Shown in pieces: positions 1 to 13,111 of a stretch of DNA of 47,295 bases. Position numbers and translations under genes: made by a program. Numbering within the stretch: position 1 is the first letter of the stretch; the number at the start of each line of letters is the position of its first letter. The notes under the pieces are model-generated. The model was not told the origin of the DNA, searched no databases, and was given only the letters and a program-made list of their open reading frames with translations. The stretch lies in assembly GCA_963733095.1 (NCBI GenBank), contig CAVTBV010000011.1, positions 1 to 47,295 of the forward strand. Reading direction: 5' to 3'. The DNA comes from Candidatus Bathyarchaeota archaeon. GTDB taxonomy: Archaea; Thermoproteota; Bathyarchaeia; Bathyarchaeales; Bathycorpusculaceae.

Positions 1-2
1 AG

Positions 3-75
3 AGCTGGGGATGGGAGTTGAACCCATATAGAGCAGCTCTGCAGGCTACCGCCTGAACCGTTCGGCCACCCCAGC
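3..75 (-). tRNA. tRNA-Cys(GCA)
   Basis: Reverse complement folds as a cloverleaf: acceptor GCTGGGG/CCCCAGC, anticodon arm GTAGC-ctGCAga-GCTGC, T-loop GGTTCAACTCC. Confidence 0.93.
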
Positions 76-163
76 ACAAGAATCTAGAACTTTGTGTGAC
101 ATAAATATATTGTTGGTTTCTTGGGTTTTCTATTATGTCTGTACAGCGCTTGGTTGAGGGCGG

Positions 164-526
164 CTATTTTTTGAACGCTAACCCGTTGAATAAAGCTACG
201 GTTTTGTCTTCTTTGCGAACCGTAACCTGATATAACCCTGTAGTTTTGCCATCGGAAACCCTTGTTGCTTCAGCAGTTAAGGTGTCTGTTTCAACTGAGG
301 GTTTCAGGAAATTTATGCTAACTTGAACCGCCACAGCCACATTATCTCCGAAGTTACATGCTTGAGCAAAGGCATAATCTGCCAACGAAAAAATTGCTCC
401 CCCATGCGTGAATCCCAACGCGTTAGTATGGATCTTTTCAATTTTCATCGTAACTTTGGAGTAACCGTCCTTTGCCTCAAGAACCTTGATGCCTAAAGCT
501 TCTGCAAAATGGTCTTTTCCTTTCAT
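164..526 (-). CDS. paaI: PaaI-family hotdog-fold acyl-CoA thioesterase
   Basis: 120 aa with N-x-x-G-x-x-HGG-x-x-x-x-LAD motif; lies in an operon with paaK. Confidence 0.88.
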   Translation of the reverse strand: MKGKDHFAEALGIKVLEAKDGYSKVTMKIEKIHTNALGFTHGGAIFSLADYAFAQACNFGDNVAVAVQVSINFLKPSVETDTLTAEATRVSDGKTTGLYQVTVRKEDKTVALFNGLAFKK

Positions 527-1617
527 TTGACTTTTTCTTCCTTTTTCTTTTCAGGAGTTTTTAGGTAAACGTAGAACTTTCTAAAAAACGATGAGAGCCC
601 TTTGGGAGCAAAGATAACAATCAACAACAGGATTACGCCGATGAACAACAGACTCAAGGGTGGTCCAACGTTGCTCACTGATGGGAAATATGAGCCGAGG
701 GATGTGCGAAGGTAATCGACCACTCCTGGAAGCGCAAGGGTCTGCTGAACAGAAACAAGGAAGATGGCGCCGATGATTGGTCCCGCAACGGTTCCCAACC
801 CTCCTATGACGGTCATTATAAGGGGCATGAAAGAGTTTGCTGGGGAGAAAATGGAGTTATCCACGAACCTCAAAAAGTACGAGTACAATCCGCCTGCAAT
901 GCCGGCAAAGAATGTGCTGATGACAAACGCTATCAGTTTATACTTGGCTGTGTTAATTCCAATCATTCTTGCTTCTGCTTCGTTTCCATGGATGGCTTTG
1001 AAAGCTAATCCCATGCGCGACTTCATAATCAAGTACATAACCGTGATGGATGCTACAGCGAAAGAAACTACGAGGATGTAGAATGGGTAACCTTTTGGGA
1101 CAAGTGTGACTGGCGCGAATCCGTTTATGCCGTTAGTGAATGAGTCAAATTGGCTTGAGAGAGTAGCTGCTATCACAGAGAAGCCAAACGTCACCATAGC
1201 CAAGTACCAGGCCTTCAACCTAACGCACGCCAAACCTATCAGAAGACCGATTCCAGCTGAAACCAAGCCGCCGACAAGAAGCACCACAACCTGAATCGAA
1301 ATGGAAACGGCGCCTATCGGCATTTGAGTTACACCCATCAATCCAATCAACGACGCTGAGATTTTGCCCCCAACTATTGCTGACGAAAACCCGCCGATGC
1401 CCAAGAAAACCGCATGTCCAAGGGAGCCTTGCCCTGAATTTGCCAGAAAATTCCAGCTCGCTGCATAAATTGCGAAGACAAAGATGAGTGTCAGGATGTA
1501 GAGGAAAAAGCTGTCGTTCACAAATATGGGTAATACCGCTAAGATTGCGAAGGTGACTAGTAAAAGTTGGAAGTTTTTTGAATGCAGGAATGCGGTGATT
1601 GCTTGTTTTATATTCAT
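523..1617 (-). CDS. livM: HAAT (branched-chain amino acid-type) ABC transporter permease, LivM-like
   Basis: Multi-TM protein with SGQGSLGHAVF, YLAMVT and GGLGTVAGP motifs; start placed at the ATG at 1617, just after the livH stop. Confidence 0.88.
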   Translation of the reverse strand: MNIKQAITAFLHSKNFQLLLVTFAILAVLPIFVNDSFFLYILTLIFVFAIYAASWNFLANSGQGSLGHAVFLGIGGFSSAIVGGKISASLIGLMGVTQMPIGAVSISIQVVVLLVGGLVSAGIGLLIGLACVRLKAWYLAMVTFGFSVIAATLSSQFDSFTNGINGFAPVTLVPKGYPFYILVVSFAVASITVMYLIMKSRMGLAFKAIHGNEAEARMIGINTAKYKLIAFVISTFFAGIAGGLYSYFLRFVDNSIFSPANSFMPLIMTVIGGLGTVAGPIIGAIFLVSVQQTLALPGVVDYLRTSLGSYFPSVSNVGPPLSLLFIGVILLLIVIFAPKGLSSFFRKFYVYLKTPEKKKEEKVK

Positions 1618-1618
1618 T

Positions 1619-2497
1619 CTATTCTCCTTTTTCACCGAATATCCCACTGGGTCTTATTATGAGGACTACTATTAGCATGGCGAATGCGACAGCGCTTCCC
1701 CAGATTCCTCCTAAAAACAGAGTTGCAAGTTGCTCTGCGACGCCGTAGAGTAATCCGCCGATGATTGCGCCTTTTATGCTGCCTAAGCCTCCGAGGATTA
1801 TAATGGCGAAGGCAATGATTGTAGGCATGGCGCCCACTTGATAATCAAAAGAGAAAATAATACCGTAGAGTCCCCCGGCTAAGGCGGCTAAAGCTGCGCC
1901 GAGGGCGAATGTGAACATGTAAATTTTCTCTATATTTATGCCCATAAGCATCGCTGTTGTGCTTCTTTGGCTTGTTGCCCGCATGGCTAAACCGAGCTTT
2001 GTTTTCTGAATCAACAAACCAAAAGTTACCAGTGCAGCAATCACCACGATTACGGCGACTATCCGGTCATACGTTATAGATATGCTTGGCAAACTCAAAC
2101 TTAACCCCGCGAAGGGACTTGTTACCTGCTTTGAATTGGGTCCCCAAAGAAGCATAGCTGCGTTCTCAAAAATGTAAATCAAACCTAAGCTAACAAAAAT
2201 CTCGTTAAGTTTGTCTGTGCCCAAAACTCGGCGAAAAGTAAGTCTTTCAACACCCACTCCTAAAACGGCAACCACTACCATAGAAATTAGGATTGCCACG
2301 TAAGCATTTATGCCAACTGAAACTGAGATTGTCCAAGTTAAGAAAGCACCTATCATGAGTAATTGTCCGTGTGCAAAGTTCACGAGTTTCATAACGCCAA
2401 AGATTATGTTCAATCCTGTTGCCAAAAGAATGTATATGCAACCAACAGCGACACCCCATATTAGCGTTAGAATGATTGTTGGTGTCGTTATATCCAT
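1619..2497 (-). CDS. livH: HAAT ABC transporter permease, LivH-like
   Basis: GLNIIFGVMKLVNFAHG and ILGGLGSI motifs. Confidence 0.9.
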   Translation of the reverse strand: MDITTPTIILTLIWGVAVGCIYILLATGLNIIFGVMKLVNFAHGQLLMIGAFLTWTISVSVGINAYVAILISMVVVAVLGVGVERLTFRRVLGTDKLNEIFVSLGLIYIFENAAMLLWGPNSKQVTSPFAGLSLSLPSISITYDRIVAVIVVIAALVTFGLLIQKTKLGLAMRATSQRSTTAMLMGINIEKIYMFTFALGAALAALAGGLYGIIFSFDYQVGAMPTIIAFAIIILGGLGSIKGAIIGGLLYGVAEQLATLFLGGIWGSAVAFAMLIVVLIIRPSGIFGEKGE

Positions 2498-2599
2498 TGT
2501 GAACTCTATCCTCTTTTAGATTAAGCGGTTGACATAATTTCTCAGGTTAACTATTTAAAATATGCGAGAAACAAAAGAAAAGAAGGGTTTGAATTGTTT

Positions 2600-3967
2600 T
2601 TATTGTCCGGGTTGATAGCCTGTTGGTAGTGTAAAGCTGGTTTGTTCTAGGTCGCTGTGGCCTGTTGGGTCCCAAACGATTTGTGATGTTAGCTTATTGG
2701 CTGTTGCATCCCATTTGAGTTGCTCGACGAAGGTTACGGGGCTGATTTCATGGTAGTTGATTCCTGTGCTGAATTGTATTTTACCCGTCTGGGTTATTAT
2801 GAGCATCTGGTTCATGTTGGTGTCTTCTATTGCCTGTCGTACTGCTGCTTTATCTACTGTTCCAGCGCTTTCGATTGCGTTCTTTGCGATGTAGAAGGCG
2901 TCATAAGTGTCAGCACCCATCATTCCTGGCACTACACCGTAGAGCTGGTTGAATTTTTCTGAGTATGTCTGGACTGCTGGTAGATACGAGGGAACCATGA
3001 ATGGGTCTAGTTTTGATTCGAGAAGTTGTCCATCACCGCTGCTTCCGAGGAGCGAATAGAATGTGGGGTCTTGGTTGTTTTCAACAGCTATGTAAACGGT
3101 TTTTAATCCAACGTCGTCCCATCCTTGCTTTATTATGAGTGGTGTTTTATCGGGGTTATCAACGACGAACACTGCGTCTGGATGTGAAGCAGCGACTGCT
3201 GTTAGGTCAGTTTGGTAGTTTGTTGTCGCAGGGTCATAGTTTCTGTCAGCTACAATGTTGATAGGTAAGCTTTCGTTCTCTATCCAATATTTTGTTGCTT
3301 GTTCAACTCCTTGTCCGAAAGCATCGTTGCGGTAAAGTATGGCGAGGCTGAAGTCTCGGTCAGGTGCAACTAAAGGTTTCATCTCTGATGCGAAGAAGTC
3401 AACGACTGTTTTGCTGTAGTCGTAGGTTGTGGTGCAGTAGTGGAACATGTAACTCATGCCTTCTGCGTCAGATATACTGTTGGCTCCGTTTGCGCCGAAG
3501 CCGCCATAATCGCCTTGTGGTCCTCTTCGGGTAACAAGTTGGTTTGATGCTCCAGTGATTATGAATGGGACTTTGTCGTTGATTGCGACCACTTGGTCTG
3601 CTAAGGTTCCTGCGCTTCCGTATCCGCCTATGAGAAGGTCAACTTGGCTTGACTCAACTGCTTGAGTTACCGGTGTCACTGCGTTGCCCGGGGCGTCATT
3701 TACTGTGTCAGCAACTATTAATGTGATGTTGACTTTGGTGTTCCATTCAGAAACGTAGATGCCGCCTGCGTTGTTTATTTCATCAACAGCCATTCTTGCG
3801 GCGCGTTCCATATCTTGGCCTACTGGTGAGCCCGATACAGGCGCAACTAAGCCTATTTTGATGTTTCGAGCGTCGGCTGAAGGTGTTTTTGGTGATAACT
3901 GTAAAGCTGCGACAGCTGAGACAGCAATTATTATGACAACTAATATAGCGAGTATTTTCTTTTGCAT
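2600..3967 (-). CDS. livK: HAAT ABC transporter substrate-binding protein
   Basis: N-terminal signal/anchor, then IKIGLVAPVSG...AVDEIN..GG and YDA motifs of type-1 binding proteins. Confidence 0.85.
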   Translation of the reverse strand: MQKKILAILVVIIIAVSAVAALQLSPKTPSADARNIKIGLVAPVSGSPVGQDMERAARMAVDEINNAGGIYVSEWNTKVNITLIVADTVNDAPGNAVTPVTQAVESSQVDLLIGGYGSAGTLADQVVAINDKVPFIITGASNQLVTRRGPQGDYGGFGANGANSISDAEGMSYMFHYCTTTYDYSKTVVDFFASEMKPLVAPDRDFSLAILYRNDAFGQGVEQATKYWIENESLPINIVADRNYDPATTNYQTDLTAVAASHPDAVFVVDNPDKTPLIIKQGWDDVGLKTVYIAVENNQDPTFYSLLGSSGDGQLLESKLDPFMVPSYLPAVQTYSEKFNQLYGVVPGMMGADTYDAFYIAKNAIESAGTVDKAAVRQAIEDTNMNQMLIITQTGKIQFSTGINYHEISPVTFVEQLKWDATANKLTSQIVWDPTGHSDLEQTSFTLPTGYQPGQ

Positions 3968-4025
3968 TTTAATTATCCTCTGTTTTTTCTTTGCTATATC
4001 CAAGTAAATGCTTAATAAAATTATC

Positions 4026-4607
4026 TCATAATACGCTATCTCGGCCTAGTTGGAAGGCTTTAAGGTTTAGATTGATGTATTTTTCTTTAAGTCTGCTCGC
4101 TATTGCACGCTGGAAAGACTCCACTTTAACTGGTATCTCTGGAAGCGCAGATAAGGCTCCAAGAAGAATTGTGTTTACGACGAGCATGTTGCCCAATTTT
4201 TCAGCTATGCCGACACCATCTACTTCATGAACCGAGGCCTTTGCCCTCAGCATATCCATTAAATCCTCAGTCTTTTTGGGTTTAACTCCTGCGCCAGTGC
4301 AGTTGGGCGGAATGTACTTCATGTTTACTATTACTGTGCCATTTTTTTTGAGCATCGGCAAGGCTCTTGCTGTTTCAAGTATTTCAAACCCCACAATTGC
4401 ATCGGCTTTTCCCGTCTCAATCAGGGGGGATTCAACTTTGCTGCCGATTCTTGCATAGGCAACAATTGAGCCGCCGCGTTGAGCCATCCCATGAATCTCA
4501 GCCTTCGCAACGTCGAAACTCTCCAGCATGGCAGCTTCGCAATAAATGTCACTTAAAACTACGACTCCTTGTCCGCCCACGCCACTAAAGACTATGTCGA
4601 GGTTCAA
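4026..4607 (-). CDS. iorB: Indolepyruvate:ferredoxin oxidoreductase beta subunit
   Basis: GVGGQG and EIHGMAQRGGS motifs; overlaps the iorA stop. Confidence 0.93.
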   Translation of the reverse strand: MNLDIVFSGVGGQGVVVLSDIYCEAAMLESFDVAKAEIHGMAQRGGSIVAYARIGSKVESPLIETGKADAIVGFEILETARALPMLKKNGTVIVNMKYIPPNCTGAGVKPKKTEDLMDMLRAKASVHEVDGVGIAEKLGNMLVVNTILLGALSALPEIPVKVESFQRAIASRLKEKYINLNLKAFQLGRDSVL

Positions 4608-6796
4608 CTTTGTCTCCTCCCTATCGCTTCAAAGGGACAGACCGTTTCGCAGACGCCGCATCCGTAGCATAAGTCAGGATCTATTACTGCTTTTTCGCTT
4701 TTTAGGCTGATGGCTGGGCACCCGAAGGATTTTACGCAGACTCCGCAGGCGTTGCATTCTTCTTTGACTTCGCGAGGGTTGCCGCGTTCAATTAGCAGGG
4801 GACAGGGTCTTTGAGAGATGATGACGGAAGGCCCATGGTAGTTTAAGGTCTGTCTGACTGTAGCGGTTGCAGCTTTTAGGTCGTATGGGTCGATAACGTC
4901 GACCTTTTCTATGCCGACTGCTTTGGCGATGTCTTGGATTCGGATGACTTTAGCATCTGTGCCCATGGCGGTTTTTCCTGAACCTGGAGTAGGTTGATGC
5001 CCCGTCATGGCAACTACACTGTTATCCATTACGATTACACATACGTTGGCCTTGTTGTAAACAATGTTAAGCAGCCCAGGCATGCCTCCGTGGAAAAAGG
5101 TTGAATCGCCTATAACCGCAAACACCTTTTCTTTTACGCCCGCATGAACCATTCCTGCAGCCTGAGAAATCCCGCCGCCCATGCAAAGGCACGATTGAAC
5201 CGCATTAACAGGAGGCAAAACACCCAGCGTGTAGCAACCGATGTCGCCGGTGACGATTTTGTCGTTTGATTTTCCTGTTAAACTTAGGGCGCTCTCAGGG
5301 CAGGCTGGAATGCATTTGGGGTTGCCTCCACATGTGTCGCAGATGATGGCTTTGTGACTTGTGGGATGAAGTGTTATGGCGCCGTATTTGCAGGCATCGA
5401 TGCACCAGTCGCAGCCCTTGCATTTGGTTTCGTCAACGATTATTGAGCCGCTCTCTTTAGCTTGACTTATCGCATTTTCAGAGCATGCGCGAATGCAGGG
5501 GGCGTCGAGGCAGCCTTTGCAAGTAACTGCAGTGTTGAATGTTTGTCCAATCCTGACCGAGCGGATTCTCGATTTGAGGGGATTGAAGACTCGTTCTTTC
5601 TCAAACGAGCATGCATACTCACATATGTCGCAGCCTACACATTTTTCGGTGTCGCATTCAACGTGTTGGTTGAGCATGTTTAAGGCGTAGTAGAATGCGC
5701 GGTGGGGACATCCAGGGCAGAGGGCTGGCGGTCTTGGCGGTAAAGCATAAAGTTCTGGTGTTTCCGCCATCGAAGTTAAGCATAGTTTGGCGAAGGCTTG
5801 GCGCACGTTGTCAGGGGTAAATTCGCCAATTTCTTCCAAACCCAATTCGGCTTTTCCGGAAACCTCAAGGTTTAGACGTTGAAGGTTCTCTTCGATGTAA
5901 GGTCTAAGTTCTTCAACAACTATCAACTTTTTCACTTTGGAAGCAAAAGACTTCACTGTTTCTGCTGGAAAAGGATGAACAAACCCCAGTTTTAACCAAG
6001 AAAACCTTTTGGTATCTAAAACCGACCGTGCATAATAGTAGCCTACTCCACTGCCTATAATGCCTATTTCACTACCATTATCCTCAACCGAATTGAACTT
6101 TGAATCGTTCGCGATCTTTCTTGCATCCATCAGTCTGCCCTCCAAAACGCGGTGCTGCCGAATAGCGTTCGAGGGAACCATAACCCATTTGGAGCCGTTC
6201 TTATCAAATTCGGAATTGCGGGTAATTTTCTGAAATTCGCCGAGTTTCACTTTTGCTTTTCCGTGTGCAACCCGAGTTGTTAGTCTCAGGATTACGGGCA
6301 GGTGGATTTTTTCGCTTATTTCGAACGCTTCTTTTGCCATGTCGAGGGCTTCTTGTGGGCTGCCTGCATCCAGCAGCGGCAGCTTTGAGTGAACTGCGAA
6401 ATAACGTGTGTCTTGCTCGTTTTGACTACTGTGCAATGCGGGGTCATCGCAGACAGCGATTACCATGCCGCCTTCGACGCCTGTGTAAGCCAACGTCATA
6501 ACTGCGTCCGCAGCAACGTTCAAGCCAACATGCTTCATAGAAACAATGGATCGCACTCCCGTCATGGAAGCGCCCGCTGCAACCTCAGCAGCGACAATCT
6601 CGTTAATGCTCCATTCAGCGTAAATGCCAAATTCTTTGGCTACATCAGCAATGGTTTCCAATATTTCCGTAGCAGGTGTCCCTGGATATGAAGCGGCAAC
6701 TTTAACGGTGGCTTCCACTGCCCCACGTGCAACCGCTTCATCACCGTTAAGCAAGGCAAAACTGCCCGGCTTACCTGCCGCAATCTTGGAAGTCAT
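4604..6796 (-). CDS. iorA: Indolepyruvate:ferredoxin oxidoreductase alpha subunit with an internal four-cluster ferredoxin insertion
   Basis: YPGTP, MKHVGLNVAAD, SSQNEQD, LCPGCPHR, GDIGCY, GDSTFFH and AMTGHQ motifs; C-terminal 2x[4Fe-4S]; extra ~130-aa Cys-rich insert. Confidence 0.93.
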   Translation of the reverse strand: MTSKIAAGKPGSFALLNGDEAVARGAVEATVKVAASYPGTPATEILETIADVAKEFGIYAEWSINEIVAAEVAAGASMTGVRSIVSMKHVGLNVAADAVMTLAYTGVEGGMVIAVCDDPALHSSQNEQDTRYFAVHSKLPLLDAGSPQEALDMAKEAFEISEKIHLPVILRLTTRVAHGKAKVKLGEFQKITRNSEFDKNGSKWVMVPSNAIRQHRVLEGRLMDARKIANDSKFNSVEDNGSEIGIIGSGVGYYYARSVLDTKRFSWLKLGFVHPFPAETVKSFASKVKKLIVVEELRPYIEENLQRLNLEVSGKAELGLEEIGEFTPDNVRQAFAKLCLTSMAETPELYALPPRPPALCPGCPHRAFYYALNMLNQHVECDTEKCVGCDICEYACSFEKERVFNPLKSRIRSVRIGQTFNTAVTCKGCLDAPCIRACSENAISQAKESGSIIVDETKCKGCDWCIDACKYGAITLHPTSHKAIICDTCGGNPKCIPACPESALSLTGKSNDKIVTGDIGCYTLGVLPPVNAVQSCLCMGGGISQAAGMVHAGVKEKVFAVIGDSTFFHGGMPGLLNIVYNKANVCVIVMDNSVVAMTGHQPTPGSGKTAMGTDAKVIRIQDIAKAVGIEKVDVIDPYDLKAATATVRQTLNYHGPSVIISQRPCPLLIERGNPREVKEECNACGVCVKSFGCPAISLKSEKAVIDPDLCYGCGVCETVCPFEAIGRRQS

Positions 6797-6806
6797 AACT
6801 TTATCC

Positions 6807-8126
6807 TTACATTTTGCCCTTACGCAAATCCAATACTCTTTTTGCTTTGCCCTCAGTTCGTGGAAGTTCGCCTGGCTTCACGATTTCCACATCAGCCGAT
6901 ATACCGGTTACGATGTGAATTCTCTTCTGGATGTCACTTATCAAGGCTTTCTTGTCGAGCTGTGGATTTTTGGAGGCTTGCTCAGACAACTCAACCTTAA
7001 CGACAAAAGTATCCAAAGCGCCGGGACGGTCAAGAACGATGAGGTACTGGGTTGCAAGTTCAGAGAAACACATCACCGCGTACTCGATTTGTGATGGGAA
7101 CACGTTTACTCCGCGGATAATGAGCATATCGTCGGATCTACCCGTTACTCTTTCCATTCTTGCATGCGTTCTTCCACATGCACATTTTTCTGTGTTGATT
7201 TTTGAGATATCTCTTGTCCTGTAACGTAAAATGGGCAAACCTGTTTTGCTGAGTGCTGTGAAGACAAGTTCTCCTTCTTCTCCCTGCGGCAACACTTCGC
7301 CTGTGTCAGGGTTTATTGTTTCTACGATGAAGTGGTCTTCCCAAATATGCAAACCATTGTGCTCGGAGCACTCGATGGATACGCCTGGACCGCAAAGTTC
7401 TGTTAACCCATAAACGTCAAAGGCTTCTATGTTCATCTCTTTTTCGATTCTTTCGCGGATTTTATGTGACCATGGTTCGGCGCCGAACATGCCGAGTCTG
7501 AGTTTTAGGTCTTTTTGTGGAACTACACCTTCCTGAGCCATTGTCTCAGCTAAATAAACTGCAAAGCTGGGCGTACAGGCTAAGATGGTTACCTCTAGGT
7601 CTTTCATGAGTTTGATTTGCCGTTGAGTCATGCCGCCGCTTGCCGGAACAATTTTAGCTCCAACTTTTTGAGCGCCGTAATGGAAGCCTAAACCGCCCGT
7701 AAACAAGCCGTAGCCGTAAGCGATGTGGATGACGTCTTGGCGTCTGCCGCCGACAGCGTAGATAGAACGCGCCATAAGTTCCTGCCACATATCCATGTCG
7801 CTTCTCGTGTAAGCGCCTATAATCGGGTTTCCTGTTGTTCCGCTGGAAGCATGAATCTCAACTATCTCATCTGATTTAGCGGCAACCATCCCAAACGGGT
7901 AATTATCCCTCAAATCACTCTTAACCGTAAAAGGAATCTTTTGCAAATCATCAAGAGAACGAATATCTTCGGGTTTCAATCCCACACTATCAAATCTTTT
8001 TCTGTAAAAACCGCTGTTCTCATAGCTATGTTTGACTTGTGCTTTGAGCTTTTGGAGCTGATGCTTTTTTATTTCTTCAGCAGGCATCGTTTCTATTTTT
8101 TCGTTCCAGTATTTGCCATCCGCCAA
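6807..8126 (-). CDS. paaK: Phenylacetate-CoA ligase
   Basis: HASSGTTG, YGYGLFTGGLG, DVYGLTE, RYRTRD and GRSDDM motifs; C-terminal PRTEGKAKRV. Confidence 0.93.
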   Translation of the reverse strand: MADGKYWNEKIETMPAEEIKKHQLQKLKAQVKHSYENSGFYRKRFDSVGLKPEDIRSLDDLQKIPFTVKSDLRDNYPFGMVAAKSDEIVEIHASSGTTGNPIIGAYTRSDMDMWQELMARSIYAVGGRRQDVIHIAYGYGLFTGGLGFHYGAQKVGAKIVPASGGMTQRQIKLMKDLEVTILACTPSFAVYLAETMAQEGVVPQKDLKLRLGMFGAEPWSHKIRERIEKEMNIEAFDVYGLTELCGPGVSIECSEHNGLHIWEDHFIVETINPDTGEVLPQGEEGELVFTALSKTGLPILRYRTRDISKINTEKCACGRTHARMERVTGRSDDMLIIRGVNVFPSQIEYAVMCFSELATQYLIVLDRPGALDTFVVKVELSEQASKNPQLDKKALISDIQKRIHIVTGISADVEIVKPGELPRTEGKAKRVLDLRKGKM

Positions 8127-8146
8127 GTTCTTTGCCCCTCTCTGCT

Positions 8147-8851
8147 TTAAAGGCCTAGATACACTTCTTTTATATGGGTATTAGATAAAAGTTCCCTACT
8201 CTTCCCTTCCAATATTATCTTGCCTTCCTCAAGAACGTATCCTCTGTCGGCGACATTAAGGCTATCATGAATGTTCTGCTCGACCAAAAGCACAGTTACG
8301 CCTTCCTCGTTTATGGTGCGTACGGTGTCGAGAACTTTCTCAACGATTATTGGTGCCAACCCGAGCGAAGGTTCATCAAGAATTAGCAGTTGGGGGTTTG
8401 ACATGAGGCTTCGGCAGATAACAAGCATCTGTTGCTCGCCGCCGCTTAGAGTTTGAGCCAGAGCTTTTTCCTTCTTCTTTAGCACTGGAAAAATGTTGAA
8501 TGCTTTCTCTTTGGTTTCTTTAACTTTGGATTTGTCTTTTATGCTGTAGGCGCCCAGTTGGAGGTTTTCTTCAACACTCATGCGGGGAAAGATTTCTCTG
8601 CCTTCAGGAATCATGGTTAATCCTTTTTTGACTATCTCGTAAGTTGATAGTTTTTCGATGTTTTCGTCCTTAAACTTTATTGAACCTGTTTTTGGATGCA
8701 AAAAACCCATTATGGTCTTTACAAGGGTAGTTTTTCCTGCCCCGTTAGGACCAATAATGCTTATGATTTCGCCTTGTTCCACCTTAAAGTATACGTCATA
8801 GAGAATCTGCACCATTCCATATGCAGCAGATAAATTTGAGATTTCCAGCAT
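8147..8851 (-). CDS. livF: HAAT ABC transporter ATPase LivF
   Basis: GPNGAGKT, LSGGEQQM, LDEPSLGLAP, VEQN. Confidence 0.92.
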   Translation of the reverse strand: MLEISNLSAAYGMVQILYDVYFKVEQGEIISIIGPNGAGKTTLVKTIMGFLHPKTGSIKFKDENIEKLSTYEIVKKGLTMIPEGREIFPRMSVEENLQLGAYSIKDKSKVKETKEKAFNIFPVLKKKEKALAQTLSGGEQQMLVICRSLMSNPQLLILDEPSLGLAPIIVEKVLDTVRTINEEGVTVLLVEQNIHDSLNVADRGYVLEEGKIILEGKSRELLSNTHIKEVYLGL

Positions 8852-9600
8852 TACTCTTCCTCACCAAAAGTAAACCGCTTGCCCAGGTAAACATTCACAA
8901 CGTTCTCGTCACAAACCACTTGTTTGGGGCTTCCTTCACAGATTTTTTCACCATGATTCAGGACTATCACGTGGCTACATAACCCCATAATTACCCGCAT
9001 GACGTGCTCTACCATTAGTACGGTGACTCCTTGCTTGTTGATTTGCTTAATTATTTCTATGGCTTCGTCAGATTCTTTTGGAGTTAAGCCTGTGAGCATC
9101 TCATCGAGCAAGAGAAATTTAGGGTTTGTTGCCAACGCTTTTGCAAGCTGAATTCGGCGCAATTCCACGACGTTTAATTTTTTTGCTGGCAAGTCAAATT
9201 TTTCTTTGCTCAACCCCACGAACCCCAAAAGCTCCTGGGCTCTCGGTAAGGCATCAGTTTTGCCCGTGTATTTTTTTTCGTTGAACAGCACGCTTGTCAG
9301 GACGTTTTCGGTTGCGGTCATTTCTGGGAAGGACTGGACGGTTTGTGCTGTTTTAGTTATACCTTTGGCGCAGATTTTGTAGGGCGGTAACTTGGCGATG
9401 TCTTCGTTCATGAAGAGGATTTGTCCTGAGTCAGGCTTGTACACGCCGCTGATGAGGTTTAGAAGCGTCGATTTGCCTGAACCGTTGGGTCCCACAAGCC
9501 CTGCTATCTCGCCGTCGCCTATAGTGAAGTCGACGTTTTTTAATGCTTGAAGTCCCCCAAAACGCTTGGAAACCTCGGTGCATTTTAGCAAACTCTGCAT
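8851..9600 (-). CDS. livG: HAAT ABC transporter ATPase LivG
   Basis: FGGLQAL, GPNGSGKS, LLDE, VEH, C-terminal YLG. Confidence 0.9.
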   Translation of the reverse strand: MQSLLKCTEVSKRFGGLQALKNVDFTIGDGEIAGLVGPNGSGKSTLLNLISGVYKPDSGQILFMNEDIAKLPPYKICAKGITKTAQTVQSFPEMTATENVLTSVLFNEKKYTGKTDALPRAQELLGFVGLSKEKFDLPAKKLNVVELRRIQLAKALATNPKFLLLDEMLTGLTPKESDEAIEIIKQINKQGVTVLMVEHVMRVIMGLCSHVIVLNHGEKICEGSPKQVVCDENVVNVYLGKRFTFGEEE

Positions 9601-9710
9601 TCTCCGAATAGCAAGGAATTATTCATGTTGAAATATAAATGTTGGTGGAAAACGTTTTTCCTCAAAAGTTTGGTTAAAGTTAAATATTAACTGAAACTAT
9701 TGGACTGTAG

Positions 9711-10166
9711 GTGTACTGTTTGCCTATTACGCAAGTTAGTGTGTTTCTTGATAATCATCCGGGTTCTTTGTTCGAAACGATGTCGCAGTTGGATAAGAAC
9801 AAGATTAGAGTTTTTGCCCTCTCGATTGCAGATAAGGGTGAGTTTGGTTTGGTTCGATTGATTACTGAAGAACCTGAGAAAGCATCGAAGTTGTTGGAAG
9901 ATGCAGATTTTAACTTGGCAAAATCAAAGAAGAATACTGAAGTTACAGCTACCTTTATTTCTGAAGAAAATACCCTCTCGAAAATAACGAAAGTTCTTGG
10001 GGATGGCGGAATAAACATAGAGTACGCTTATTCCTCAGCGGTGCATGTGGATGGGAAAGTTGCATTGATTTTGCGTCCCAGTGACGTTGAGAAGGCAGAG
10101 GAAATGTTAGCAGCTAACAAATTGGCAGTTTTATCGCTTGAGGAAATCAAAAAATACTTCCAGTGA
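9711..10166 (+). CDS. Tandem ACT-domain protein
   Basis: QVSVFLDNHPGSL and INIEYAY; this family typically neighbours paaK/iorAB. Confidence 0.85.
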   Translation: MYCLPITQVSVFLDNHPGSLFETMSQLDKNKIRVFALSIADKGEFGLVRLITEEPEKASKLLEDADFNLAKSKKNTEVTATFISEENTLSKITKVLGDGGINIEYAYSSAVHVDGKVALILRPSDVEKAEEMLAANKLAVLSLEEIKKYFQ

Positions 10167-10285: not shown

Positions 10286-13111
10286 ATGGTTACCACAAAT
10301 CTTGACAAGATTTTCAATCCTCAAAATGTAGCAATCATCGGCGCCAGTGACGCAGAAGGCTCAGTTGGCTATGCCATAGTTAAAAATTTTACTAAGATGG
10401 GTTACTCTGGGAAAGTTTACTTTGTTAACATTCGAAAGCCTGAGATTTTAGGCGTTAAAACCTATCCCTCAGTCGACCAGATTCCTGAACCCATCGATTT
10501 AGCCATAATTGCCACTCCAGCCAAAACCGTTCCAGACGTTATGGAAGAATGCGGCAAAGCACAGGTTAAAGGAGTCATCATCGTTTCCGCGGGTTTCAAG
10601 GAAACAGGTCCCGCGGGCAAAGCTTTAGAAGAAAAAATATCTGAAGCCTCAAAGAAATACGGAATCAGAGTTATCGGACCAAACTGTATCGGCATAATTC
10701 GTCCGAGAAACAATCTCAACGCGACATTTTTAGATAAAATGCCTAAACCCGGCAACGTAGCTTTCCTATCTCAAAGCGGCGCCTTAGGTTCCGCAATCCT
10801 TGACTGGGCACTTCACGAAAATATCGGCTTTAGTAACTTTGTTTCGGTTGGATCAATGATTGACGTGGACTTTGGTGATTTAATCGATTATTTTGGTTCT
10901 GACCCGAAAACAAAAAGCATCCTCATGTATGTGGAAGGCATAACTGAAGCCCGCAAGTTCATGAGCGCTGCAAGACACTTCGCCAGAACCAAACCAATCA
11001 TAGTTGTTAAATCGGGCAAATTCTCTGAAAGCGCAAAAGCGGCTGCATCCCACACGGGTTCGCTTTCTGGGGAAGACAGCATTTATGATGCAGCTTTCAA
11101 GCGTGCTGGTATAGTTCGTGTTAATGAAATAGCTGACTTGTTTAATGCGGCTGAGGTTTTAGGAACTCAACCTTTGCCCAAAGGACCAAGACTTGCCATA
11201 ATAACCAATGCTGGTGGACCCGGCGTAATGGCGACGGACTCTTTGATTGCTCAAGGCGGCAAATTAGCCAAGTTAAGCCAGAAAACCCTCGATTCCCTCA
11301 ACGCTGTTTTGCCTCCATTCTGGAGCCATGGCAACCCAATCGATGTTTTAGGAGACGCTAAATCTGAGCGGTATAAAGCTGCAGTTGAAGCCTGCCTAAA
11401 CGATGACAACATCGATGGTATCATGATTGTTTTCACTCAGCAGGCAGTTTCAGAGTCTGTCGAAATCGCCAAAAACATAATTGAACTCGTCCGCAATAAA
11501 TCGTTCCAGAACAAAACAATCCTCACGTCCTTCATGGGTTACGGAGCCGTTCAAGAAGCAAACAACATCCTAAACGCAAACAACATCCCCACCTACTCAA
11601 CCCCTGAACAAGCAATCAGAACCTACATGTACATGTACAACTACCAACGCAACGTTGACCTGCTCTACGAAACACCCGAGGAACTCCCCGTTGATGCAGC
11701 ACCACCAAAACGTCCCATCATGGCAATTCTCAGAAATGCCGCGTTCGAAGACCGCGAAGTCTTAACTGAAGATGAAGCCAAAAAAATCCTAAAGTACTAC
11801 AATTTCCCGGTTGTGAAAACCGCGGTTGCCAACAACGTTGATGAGGCAGTTGCGTTCTCGCAGGAAATGGGGTTCCCAGTGGTTCTAAAGATTCTCTCGC
11901 CCCAAATTATACATAAAAGCGATGCTGGCGGAGTCATCCTCAACGTCAACTCGCCAAGCCAAGTCCGAGAAGCCTTCGAAATTCTTATCCAAAGAGCAAC
12001 CGCCTACAACCCGAACGCCCAAATCATCGGTGTCACTGTTCAACCAATGATCGAAAAGAAAGGGCACGAAATCATCATCGGCGGAAAAACCGACCCCGTA
12101 TTCGGTCCAGTTATCCTCTTCGGTATGGGCGGCGTCGGTGTAGAACTCTTCAAAGACTACTCTATCGGTCTGCCACCACTCAACACAACCCTCATTCATC
12201 GTATGATGGATGAAACCAAAGTTTACAGCTTACTCAAAGGCTGGAGAAACGCACCACCAGTTGACCTAAAAAAACTCGATGAAACTATACTTATGTTCTC
12301 TCAGCTGCTGGTTGATTTTCCACAGATAAAAGAGATCGACATAAACCCCCTGTTAATCAACGAAAAAGACGCCACTGTTCTTGATGCCCGCATAGTTGTC
12401 GACAAAGAAAAAGTCTGCAAAAAATTCGAACCACACGAACACATGGTTATCAGCCCGTACCCAAAAAAATACGAGGTGCTGTGGCTACTCAAGAACGGTC
12501 AAGAAGTTCTACTGCGCCCCATAAAACCCGAAGATGAACCCATGTGGCTGGAGATGTTCCAGAGCTTCTCAGAAGAATCCATCCGCTACCGCTTCTTCCA
12601 AATGCTAAAAGACACTCCACATGAAGTCCGAGTCCGCTACTGCAACATAGACTACGACCGAGAAATCGCCATTGTCGCTGAAATGGTGGAAAACGGCAAA
12701 AGAAAACTCCTCGGCGTAACCCGCCTCAGCTTTGAACCCGACGAAAAAAGCAGCGAAATGGCCTTCATCGTTAGCGACTACTGGCAAGGTTTAGGTTTGG
12801 GCACTAAAATGGTTGATTACGTGCTTGACATTGCAAAAGAAAAAGGCATGGAAAGCGTTCACGCCATCATTCTGCAGGATAACTACCGCGCCTTGAGTTT
12901 GTCAAAAAAGATGGGGTTCAAACTTGAATACTTAACCGACGGCACAGTTAAAGCAAAGTTGAACCTAAAAGAAGAAGACATCGACTTCCGCTGTGTGCAA
13001 CTAAAACTGCCAGAGCCACCACAAACAAAACAGGAAAAGCAACCACAAGAAGTACCCGTTTCCGAAGGCAAAAAAGCAATCCGTAACCAGCAAGAAGCAA
13101 CACCCGCCTAA
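10286..13111 (+). CDS. ADP-forming acetate/acyl-CoA ligase (alpha+beta) fused to a C-terminal GNAT acetyltransferase (Pat/YfiQ-like)
   Basis: GPNC, SQSG, SHTGSL, NPID, HKSDAGGV and DINP motifs; GNAT domain LRPIKPED...WQGLGLG. Confidence 0.9.
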   Translation: MVTTNLDKIFNPQNVAIIGASDAEGSVGYAIVKNFTKMGYSGKVYFVNIRKPEILGVKTYPSVDQIPEPIDLAIIATPAKTVPDVMEECGKAQVKGVIIVSAGFKETGPAGKALEEKISEASKKYGIRVIGPNCIGIIRPRNNLNATFLDKMPKPGNVAFLSQSGALGSAILDWALHENIGFSNFVSVGSMIDVDFGDLIDYFGSDPKTKSILMYVEGITEARKFMSAARHFARTKPIIVVKSGKFSESAKAAASHTGSLSGEDSIYDAAFKRAGIVRVNEIADLFNAAEVLGTQPLPKGPRLAIITNAGGPGVMATDSLIAQGGKLAKLSQKTLDSLNAVLPPFWSHGNPIDVLGDAKSERYKAAVEACLNDDNIDGIMIVFTQQAVSESVEIAKNIIELVRNKSFQNKTILTSFMGYGAVQEANNILNANNIPTYSTPEQAIRTYMYMYNYQRNVDLLYETPEELPVDAAPPKRPIMAILRNAAFEDREVLTEDEAKKILKYYNFPVVKTAVANNVDEAVAFSQEMGFPVVLKILSPQIIHKSDAGGVILNVNSPSQVREAFEILIQRATAYNPNAQIIGVTVQPMIEKKGHEIIIGGKTDPVFGPVILFGMGGVGVELFKDYSIGLPPLNTTLIHRMMDETKVYSLLKGWRNAPPVDLKKLDETILMFSQLLVDFPQIKEIDINPLLINEKDATVLDARIVVDKEKVCKKFEPHEHMVISPYPKKYEVLWLLKNGQEVLLRPIKPEDEPMWLEMFQSFSEESIRYRFFQMLKDTPHEVRVRYCNIDYDREIAIVAEMVENGKRKLLGVTRLSFEPDEKSSEMAFIVSDYWQGLGLGTKMVDYVLDIAKEKGMESVHAIILQDNYRALSLSKKMGFKLEYLTDGTVKAKLNLKEEDIDFRCVQLKLPEPPQTKQEKQPQEVPVSEGKKAIRNQQEATPA

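Follow-up and report, generated by a model that had tools for sequence, protein, structure and literature searches.

The 2-oxoacid:ferredoxin oxidoreductases (OFORs) are central to anaerobic carbon and amino-acid metabolism, and canonical enzymes of the IorAB type, the indolepyruvate oxidoreductases (IOR), are known from Pyrococcus furiosus and from methanogens. In the structures and passages that we compared, each catalytic unit of an OFOR contains between one and three clusters, and its electrons are delivered to diffusible ferredoxin. In the WorABCSL and AorABC complexes, according to the open-access passages of PMC12318220 and PMC10413684, four-cluster modules of the WorS/AorA type relay electrons from the catalytic subunit. 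Here we analyse a stretch of 47,295 nucleotides from a Candidatus Bathyarchaeota archaeon (assembly GCA_963733095.1, contig CAVTBV010000011.1, positions 1 to 47,295 of the forward strand; hereafter the window), in which iorA, the gene for the IOR alpha subunit, contains a complete module of this WorS/AorA type between two ligands of its proximal cluster.

The gene lies at 4604..6796 on the minus strand, as do all features of IorA described below, and encodes a single chain of 730 residues. The IOR_alpha equivalog model TIGR03336 recognises this protein at 699.5 bits (699.7 on the genome) against a cut-off of 650.9, and Pfam places POR_N at residues 25-195, TPP_enzyme_C at 518-659 and Fer4/Fer4_7 at 681-725. 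By score and architecture the protein is an IOR alpha subunit; its activity on aromatic 2-oxoacids is predicted from the family and from an operon context with a PaaK-type ligase, a thioesterase and an ATP-binding cassette (ABC) transporter. The N-terminal half (residues 1-345, 5762..6796) comprises the OFOR-fold pyrimidine-binding domain I and domain II, as indicated by POR_N and by the match of model residues 11-340 to OFOR alpha subunits (Z 31-34.5 in VIA). The motif CPGC (5708..5719) follows, with C360 and C363 as Cys1 and Cys2 of the proximal [4Fe-4S] cluster, invariant in 145/145 and 120/120 rows of two alignments. The third ligand, C521 in GDIGC (5234..5236), is invariant in both alignments, and the fourth, C665 (4802-4804), is invariant in 145/145 rows of the one and a cysteine in 115/115 non-gap rows of the other. 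Between them lies the thiamine pyrophosphate (TPP)-binding domain, residues 515-664 (4805..5254), defined by TPP_enzyme_C, and the chain ends in a 2x[4Fe-4S] ferredoxin domain for the medial and distal clusters (residues 675-727, 4616..4774; Fer4/Fer4_7), whose eight cysteines, C681-C720, are kept in the insert-bearing set.

The feature in which this protein departs from its family is the distance between Cys2 and Cys3. Ordinary members of the IOR family have a contiguous TPP domain in which the two cysteines are some 22-36 residues apart, and 150 of the 150 best 50%-identity IorA cluster representatives, all of them unnamed entries, have spacings of 22-36 (median 26) and lack the insertion. 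In the IorA of the window C363 and C521 are 158 residues apart, and the spacing is 157-158 in all 115 measurable entries among 120 that carry the insert; relative to the closest ortholog without it the net gain is about 122 residues. The match to the IOR_alpha profile accordingly falls into two pieces, the first ending at profile position 375 and the second starting at 376, and inside this gap Pfam finds Fer4_11 at residues 423-505. An earlier reading, made from the letters alone (the sequence-only reading), had placed a four-cluster ferredoxin block at 5279-5665, between the flanks LCPGCPHRAFYYAL and IVTGDIGCY, with both the proximal cluster and the C-terminal domain retained. The open reading frame (ORF), the flanks, the four cysteine motifs, the four proximal ligands and the C-terminal eight-cysteine domain are all found as described, and the range corresponds to residues 378-506, 129 residues in frame. 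That the flanks are normally only a few residues apart holds in so far as the segment is short in ordinary IorA, but it is really about 26 residues long rather than a few. The further concern that the same insertion might be common in already characterised IorA proteins is answered in part by its absence from the 150 best representatives, which are unnamed entries.

By phmmer, VIA and identity to paralogs, the module occupies residues 375-513 (5258..5674) and contains four sets of [4Fe-4S] ligands. These are motif I, CVGCDICEYAC (C386, C389, C392, C396; 5609..5641); motif II, CKGCLDAPCIRAC (C426, C429, C434, C438; 5483..5521); motif III, CKGCDWCIDAC (C459, C462, C465, C469; 5390..5422); and motif IV, CDTCGGNPKCIPAC (C486, C489, C495, C499; 5300..5341). 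In each motif the ligands are invariant in 120/120 sequences, these being the insert-bearing protein clusters among the matches listed, so that all 16 cysteines are kept throughout, which is far beyond chance. The mean column identity of the insert is 0.855 against 0.87-0.89 in the rest of IorA; that is, the two are about equally conserved. Since all 16 ligands and the double-ferredoxin fold are kept, the module most likely binds four clusters, which would bring IorA to seven, and the ligands for seven [4Fe-4S] clusters that the sequence-only reading had counted are indeed present. An extra, 17th cysteine, C381 (5654-5656), stands just before motif I and is invariant in the inserts (120/120 and 39/39 rows); at this position 47 free-standing WorS-like proteins have Ala, Val, Cys, Thr and Ser in 30, 8, 6, 2 and 1 cases.

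By family the insert is a small subunit of the tungsten aldehyde oxidoreductases (AORs), of the group formed by WorS, AorA and the small subunit of WOR5 (WOR5-S). In phmmer searches it matches 9mqx_E, from the WorABCSL entry of Acetomicrobium mobile, at E 6.9e-25 (we take chain E to be WorS from its description and from the chain letters in the paper), the WOR5 small subunits 6x6u_B and 6x1o_B at E 1e-24, and the AorA chain 8c0z_C at E 2.2e-20. Structural comparison in VIA of model residues 375-513 gives Z 18.9 and a root-mean-square deviation (rmsd) of 2.0 A over 139 aligned residues for 6x6u_B, and Z 17.1 and 1.8 A over 135 for 8c0z_F. For 9mqx_E the figures are Z 20.6 and 3.7 A over 148 residues, with the alignment extending over model residues 375-707; at least nine of its aligned residues lie beyond 513, the last of them at 707 in the C-terminal ferredoxin domain, which suggests, from the alignment ranges only, that this domain adjoins the module. 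A second AlphaFold2 (AF2) model, in which free-standing homologs were added to the alignment, has a mean predicted local distance difference test score (pLDDT) of 95.4 and a predicted TM-score (pTM) of 0.91, with the insert at a pLDDT of 85-97. By Foldseek, VIA and sequence search we found no solved IOR structure, and the best matches of the model in the PDB are pyruvate (PFOR), 2-oxoglutarate (OGOR) and oxalate (OOR) oxidoreductases and other TPP enzymes. The sequence-only reading had called the block DmsB/CooF/HydN-type. This is right at the level of the superfamily (Fer4_11, the broad DmsB/HycB class), but the scores of the equivalog models fall well short of the cut-offs (DmsB 67.1 bits against 214.1, HydN 47.5 against 260 and NrfC 47.5 against 377.6), and the closer relatives are WorS and AorA instead.

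The same genome holds three free-standing paralogs with 50-56% identity to the insert. Two of them, of 169 and 172 residues, are each encoded on contig C6 immediately after an AFOR_N/AFOR_C gene, and the third is an orphan WorS-like gene for 207 residues with a long C-terminal extension (C12:504201-504824). A search with the insert only returned about 45 free-standing proteins of 153-209 residues and 50-61% identity which, where named, are bathyarchaeal 4Fe-4S dicluster proteins. These free-standing proteins share a conserved C-terminal tail, which in the paralogs of this genome reads VTxDxLAQKARxxAVKKLFQEA; the insert has no such tail and re-enters IorA right after motif IV. A hidden Markov model of the tail finds three significant hits among the 13,217 ORFs of the genome, namely the three free paralogs. 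In AorA and WorS, according to the open-access passages of PMC12318220 and PMC10413684, a C-terminal helix mediates filament formation, and the tail of the free family matches this helix in position. As a side observation, the AOR-family genes and their small four-cluster subunits on C6 form tandem pairs, of 637+169 and 684+172 residues, at 44761-50141 of that contig (genome G000, locus L015), and the genome has four AOR-family genes in total.

How widespread is the insert? Of 523 candidates of IorA length, 384 (counted as protein clusters) reach E <= 1e-3 over the insert region, and in the 120 of these 384 that were listed the insert is always present, at 72-100% identity; 108 of the 119 listed clusters other than the query are 720-735 residues long. 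At a protein length of 730 residues the Atlas lists only the cluster of this protein itself (53 members, Bathyarchaeota); a bacterial IorA cluster in it is 701 residues long. We then turn to the class as a whole, where 315 of 401 sampled genomes have a match at E <= 1e-30 and the insert was counted when a single match covered positions ~1-729 of the query. By this count 59 of the 401 genomes carry it, including the genome of the window (G000), a copy split by a frameshift (G369) and a copy at a contig end (G355). All belong to a single order and, within it, to the families f1 (genera g1, g3, g6, g7, g8, g13 and g23) and f5 (g42); elsewhere in the class IorA is of the ordinary form, at 40-50% identity. 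When one genome was scanned for each species, 80 loci were kept, of which 69 span both junctions. The records of 64 of these are titled Bathyarchaeota, Bathyarchaeia or Candidatus Bathycorpusculum, and the remaining five are labelled Thermoproteota, Nanoarchaeia, Methanocella and, twice, 'uncultured archaeon', but fall within the clade of the others. The alignment and mapping that the sequence-only reading had proposed thus place the insert in Bathyarchaeia, nearly all of it in the Bathy-6/Bathycorpusculum lineage. Some records stand out by their filing: loci L072, L096 and L071 bear the labels Nanoarchaeia, Methanocella and Thermoproteota, and protein P0088 that of Binatia, yet they nest in the bathyarchaeal clade (the tree does not include L071). 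Given this nesting, a mistake in the binning or in the label is more probable than a transfer of the gene.

The junctions themselves were compared with independent data. At 5258 the junction is crossed by a contig from a public run that covers 5016-5343 without a mismatch. None of the fragmentary Logan contigs from three DNA runs crosses the second one, at 5674/5680, and it is supported by independent assemblies. Of the two junctions, one is thus bridged by public-run contigs; the recurrence of the architecture in hundreds of independent assemblies argues against a chimera. Positions 1-9,999 of the window, when reverse-complemented, match C10:1-9999 at 99.95% identity, and because of this duplication of ends the two assembly copies of the iorAB operon are one locus at overlapping contig ends. 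We conclude that the insert is a genuine domain insertion and not an assembly artefact. The identity of the block as an intein or mobile element was also considered, and it is ruled out by Pfam, which shows ferredoxin domains only and no intein family. In nine related loci (L019, L021, L025, L027, L035, L041, L054, L085 and L090) IorA and its neighbours are split into two or three ORFs, which looks like assembly frameshift errors rather than pseudogenes.

With regard to origin, a tree of the insert separates the inserts (39 rows) from the free-standing proteins (47 rows) by one branch with a support of 95 in the SH-like approximate likelihood ratio test (SH-aLRT), probably reflecting a single capture of the module, with which such a split is consistent. 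In trees of IorA from which the insert was excised, the insert-bearing proteins fall in one clade on a long stem (SH-aLRT 99-100). This clade also holds the insert-less IorA proteins of G393 (607 residues, identical to P0121) and G346 (605 residues), both from a genus that apart from them carries the insert, and these nest beside two insert-bearing rows with a support of 93 and 99 in two trees. Their genes, at 2675-4498 of locus L099 (G393) and 3159-4976 of L100 (G346), have the same synteny of LivF, PaaK, IorA, IorB and substrate-binding protein. When all insert-bearing rows are held together, the approximately unbiased (AU) test gives p = 0.0504. Since this value is borderline, one gain followed by one clean secondary loss is favoured and no more. 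In our picture, the iorA of an ancestor of the Bathy-6/Bathycorpusculum lineage received a copy of the ferredoxin core from a small subunit of the WorS/AorA type. The copy would have entered in frame, in the surface loop between Cys2 and Cys3 of the proximal cluster, and would then have been inherited vertically.

What could such a module do? We think it probable that it is a covalently tethered polyferredoxin relay, which would extend or branch the electron path of IOR and offer it a new port. The IorA core and the C-terminal ferredoxin domain superpose jointly on the PFOR of M. thermoacetica, 6cin_A (513 aligned residues, model 12-712), and since the two superpose together, the chain from TPP through the proximal and medial to the distal cluster is kept and the module is an addition to it. 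To this intact canonical path the module would add a port for swapping low-potential electrons with cellular partners; the reaction that it would serve, arylpyruvate + CoA <-> arylacetyl-CoA + CO2 + 2 e-, is reversible. The chain enters and leaves the module through one and the same half, that of motifs I and IV. In other four-cluster proteins of this fold it is the motif I/IV half that faces the catalytic subunit. The open-access passages of PMC12318220 and PMC10413684 describe, for WorSL and AorAB, a small subunit that turns one half towards the cluster of the catalytic subunit while the other half is the onward wire. On that analogy the TPP domain would stand in the place of WorL and the motif II/III half would point outward. 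The polarity of the module, its competence in electron transfer and its role as a relay are inferred. As for the partner at the port, a free ferredoxin, AOR/WorS units and a flavoprotein are all candidates.

Several points weigh against a relay. The occupancy of the four clusters is deduced from their ligands only, and contact within tunnelling range between a cluster of the module and a canonical cluster is an assumption. Moreover, a helix of some ten residues (H364-373 in the AF2 model) comes between Cys2 and the insertion point, so that the first cluster of the module could be well away from the proximal cluster. The confident placement of the insert in the second AF2 model rests partly on learned ferredoxin geometry; in the first model, calculated without free-standing homologs in the alignment (A1), the insert has a pLDDT below 50. 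The module is also dispensable for IOR function as such, because orthologs without it (G393, G346) exist in the same synteny. Finally, no conserved partner gene was found in the operon among the 69 related loci. The connection to AOR that the sequence-only reading had raised is echoed by homology (9mqx_E, 6x6u_B, 8c0z and the AOR-adjacent paralogs). The docking on a hydrogenase, an AOR or a bifurcating complex which it also suggested, and the drive towards reductive carboxylation, stay hypothetical, since the operon has no conserved partner gene and the presence of the shikimate pathway gives no hint of direction.

The alternative that fares best, which we nevertheless regard as unlikely, is that the module is a docking adaptor and not a relay only. 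Here the exposed motif II/III half would keep the beta-sheet groove which in WorS and AorA receives the C-terminal helix of a neighbour, so that IOR plugs onto free WorS-AOR units; if true, the result would be a 2-oxoacid/aldehyde oxidoreductase supercomplex on one Fe-S wire. AOR is said to oxidise aldehydes that are released as side products of OFORs, and this would suit such an arrangement. The groove residues of A. mobile WorS, which the open-access passages of PMC12318220 give as Tyr40, Phe42, Val48, Met50 and Phe96, map through the phmmer alignment to V414, I416, T422, V424 and Y471 of the insert, and at four of these five positions the insert agrees with the free-standing proteins, whose consensus there is hydrophobic (V, L, L, V, Y). 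However, one position of the groove is polar: 30 of 39 insert rows have T422, where 28 of 47 free proteins have Leu. The genome's three free paralogs do carry the C-terminal tail that the insert is without, and no other ORFs have it, but filament formation by these archaeal small subunits is only putative. A small ORF on the opposite strand that matches the insert lies downstream of iorB in 7 of 69 loci (L052, L055, L056, L057, L061, L064 and L066). In L052, the only one of the seven inspected, it encodes a WorS-like protein, lies some 4 kb beyond iorB and adjoins an AOR gene. On the other hand, the AOR genes are outside the conserved operon, and the insert-less genomes G393 and G346 retain AOR + WorS pairs, so that there is no co-loss. 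A complex prediction for the insert (residues 373-513) with the AOR-linked small subunit at C6:46676-47185 gave a score of 0.01 against a mark of 0.32; made without controls, it weighs neither way. In its most specific form, which we hold to be unlikely to the same degree, the inserted WorS core would be a socket for the C-terminal helices of free WorS or of the orphan 207-residue paralog, and IOR and the tungsten AORs would share a nanowire. Electrons from aromatic 2-oxoacids and aldehydes would then be pooled or exchanged directly, without diffusible ferredoxin, and IOR would be the first OFOR in the class of polyferredoxin-nanowire enzymes.

Improbable, in our view, is a wiring to a flavoprotein, by which electrons would pass to or from NAD(P) or a bifurcating module rather than free ferredoxin. 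In PadEFGHI, the phenylglyoxylate:NAD+ oxidoreductase, the four-cluster module ends on a flavin subunit, and in the PadI model a domain of this kind is fused at the corresponding place of the OFOR beta subunit. In AorABC and WorABCSL likewise, according to the open-access passages of PMC12318220 and PMC10413684, the WorS/AorA-like module ends on an FAD or FMN subunit. But in the 69 loci no conserved flavoprotein gene was found next to iorAB, and the sole Pyr_redox_2 gene found beside a WorS-like gene in this genome belongs to a glutamate-synthase-like cluster, whose ferredoxin is only 34% identical to the insert.

There is little to be said for the module being a redox-inert appendage, structural or regulatory, that stabilises the enzyme, protects it from oxygen or senses redox state without carrying catalytic flux, and we consider it very unlikely. 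Natural orthologs without the insert do occur in the same operon context, and the link of the module to the canonical chain is a presumed one. Against this stand the invariance of all 16 ligands across the clade, down to 53-61% identity in Bathycorpusculum records, which is as predicted by selection for four intact clusters, and a fold that matches true electron-transfer subunits at an rmsd of 1.8-2.0 A. Practically no chance is left to the block having arisen by chimeric assembly, by a misjoin of the contig or as a selfish insertion like an intein, since against the redundancy of ends shown by the duplicated first 9,999 bases stand the same 730-residue architecture in the 120 listed clusters (from several sources), 59 genomes and 69 loci of named records, the mismatch-free public-run contig across 5258, Pfam hits in the block with no intein family among them and a GC content that is unremarkable across the block, and independent assemblies have already refuted it.

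The tethered relay, which we prefer, has to be seen in the setting of its operon, all on the minus strand. The stop of iorA is overlapped by the start of iorB (4026..4607; 193 residues), which has a POR domain (Pfam POR, 129 bits) and is present in 67 of the 69 loci; the best NCBIfam equivalogs for IorB score 165-190 bits, below their cut-offs of 206-237. Directly upstream of iorA, also in 67 of 69 loci, is an aryl-CoA ligase gene (6807..8126) with AMP-binding and AMP-binding_C_2, a pair which we take to denote a PaaK-type enzyme. Upstream of paaK come two ABC ATPases, LivF-like and LivG-like, identified by sequence motifs (8147..9600; 46 of 69 loci). Downstream of iorB, Pfam identifies a Liv-type substrate-binding protein (2600-4003), two permeases (1619-2497 and 523-1647) and a 4HBT thioesterase (164-526). 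The order of the operon is therefore two ABC ATPases, PaaK, IorA, IorB, the Liv-type binding protein, the two permeases and the 4HBT thioesterase; the downstream genes (164..4003) are conserved in 47-50 of 69 loci and the transporter genes in 46-48. This context points to the uptake of aromatic acids or amino acids coupled to the interconversion of arylacetyl-CoA and arylpyruvate. Chorismate synthase, EPSP (5-enolpyruvylshikimate-3-phosphate) synthase and prephenate dehydratase are all present in the genome. Because these shikimate-pathway genes are present, the context leaves the direction of the reaction unfixed. A missing shikimate pathway would have made the assimilation of arylacetate obligatory; with the enzymes of the pathway there, this argument for a direction falls away.

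Beside the operon and divergent from it are a gene for an ACT-pair protein (9711-10166) and, on the plus strand, one for a protein of 941 residues (10286-13111) that fuses a CoA-binding domain, a succinyl-CoA-ligase-like part and ATP-grasp_5 to a C-terminal GNAT domain. This fusion, presumably akin to the Pat/PatZ-type protein acetyltransferases which it resembles, is conserved in 36-37 of the 69 related loci. Elsewhere in the genome (G000 C12:203000-215500, locus L017) a distant four-cluster ferredoxin of 147 residues, 34% identical to the insert, stands by Pyr_redox_2 and split glutamate-synthase-like genes.

The carriers of the insert are Bathy-6 Bathyarchaeia of peat, wetland soil and termite guts, organisms that are abundant and almost uncultured; at issue is the flow of electrons in their turnover of amino acids and aromatic compounds. 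In the literature searched, that is, open-access titles, abstracts and passages, with supplements and subscription papers outside this scope, we found no IorA architecture with an inserted module. In its open-access text, the study of Bathy-6 genomes by Loh et al. (PMC7886697) lists Ior without comment on its architecture. The words 'indolepyruvate' and 'IOR' are absent from the open-access text of a second Bathy-6 genome study (PMC11697101), which states that a terminal electron acceptor could not be identified. Our results show that the proximal-cluster loop of IorA tolerates a redox domain of 139 residues, an unusual piece of natural protein engineering, and they link the OFORs with the polyferredoxin "nanowire" modules that were recently recognised in tungsten enzymes. 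Moreover, the insert-bearing and insert-less orthologs in the same operon offer a natural control pair for the choice of partner, for reversibility (CO2 fixation into aromatic 2-oxoacids) and for oxygen tolerance.

Finally, let us compare the protein with the systems already described. With canonical IorAB (TIGR03336/TIGR03334) it shares the layout of POR_N, TPP_enzyme_C and C-terminal 2x[4Fe-4S] domain, the four cysteines of the proximal cluster, an adjacent IorB and an operon with a PaaK-type ligase. It differs by the four-cluster module of 139 residues between Cys2 and Cys3 and thus has ligands for seven clusters, not three. With the solved members of the WorS/AorA/WOR5-S group (PDB 9MQX chain E, 8C0Z, 6X6U/6X1O) the insert shares the four cysteine motifs, the 16 ligands and the double-ferredoxin fold, and it is 34-36% identical to them over 135-148 aligned residues, with Z of 17-21. 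Unlike them it is embedded in iorA and is neither a separate subunit nor beside an AOR gene, whereas two of the free paralogs of the genome are separate polypeptides beside AOR genes; it also lacks the C-terminal helix for oligomerisation, and where the free proteins almost always have a Trp ahead of their last CP (W133 in alignment A3), the insert has Ala.

The fusion of an OFOR to a domain of this sort has its closest precedent in PadI (NF045766), the beta subunit of the NADH-dependent phenylglyoxylate dehydrogenase, in which a four-cluster domain and an OFOR beta/TPP domain share one chain near the proximal CxxC. The insert matches positions 7-139 of the NF045766 profile and the PorB of the genome matches 144-384, but the insert scores 70.2 bits against a cut-off of 700 and is not a PadI. 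In PadI, moreover, the fusion is N-terminal and precedes the CxxC, whereas here the domain is inserted internally, after the CxxC, in an IorA in which alpha and beta parts are fused. An extra polyferredoxin accompanies an OFOR also in the pyruvate oxidoreductase of methanogens, where, according to the open-access passages of PMC13768988, PorE/PorF are separate and loosely bound and their status as subunits is doubted; here the polyferredoxin is a domain within the chain. Thus the IOR family, the WorS/AorA modules and the PadI-type fusion were known already, and what is added here is a four-cluster module within IorA.

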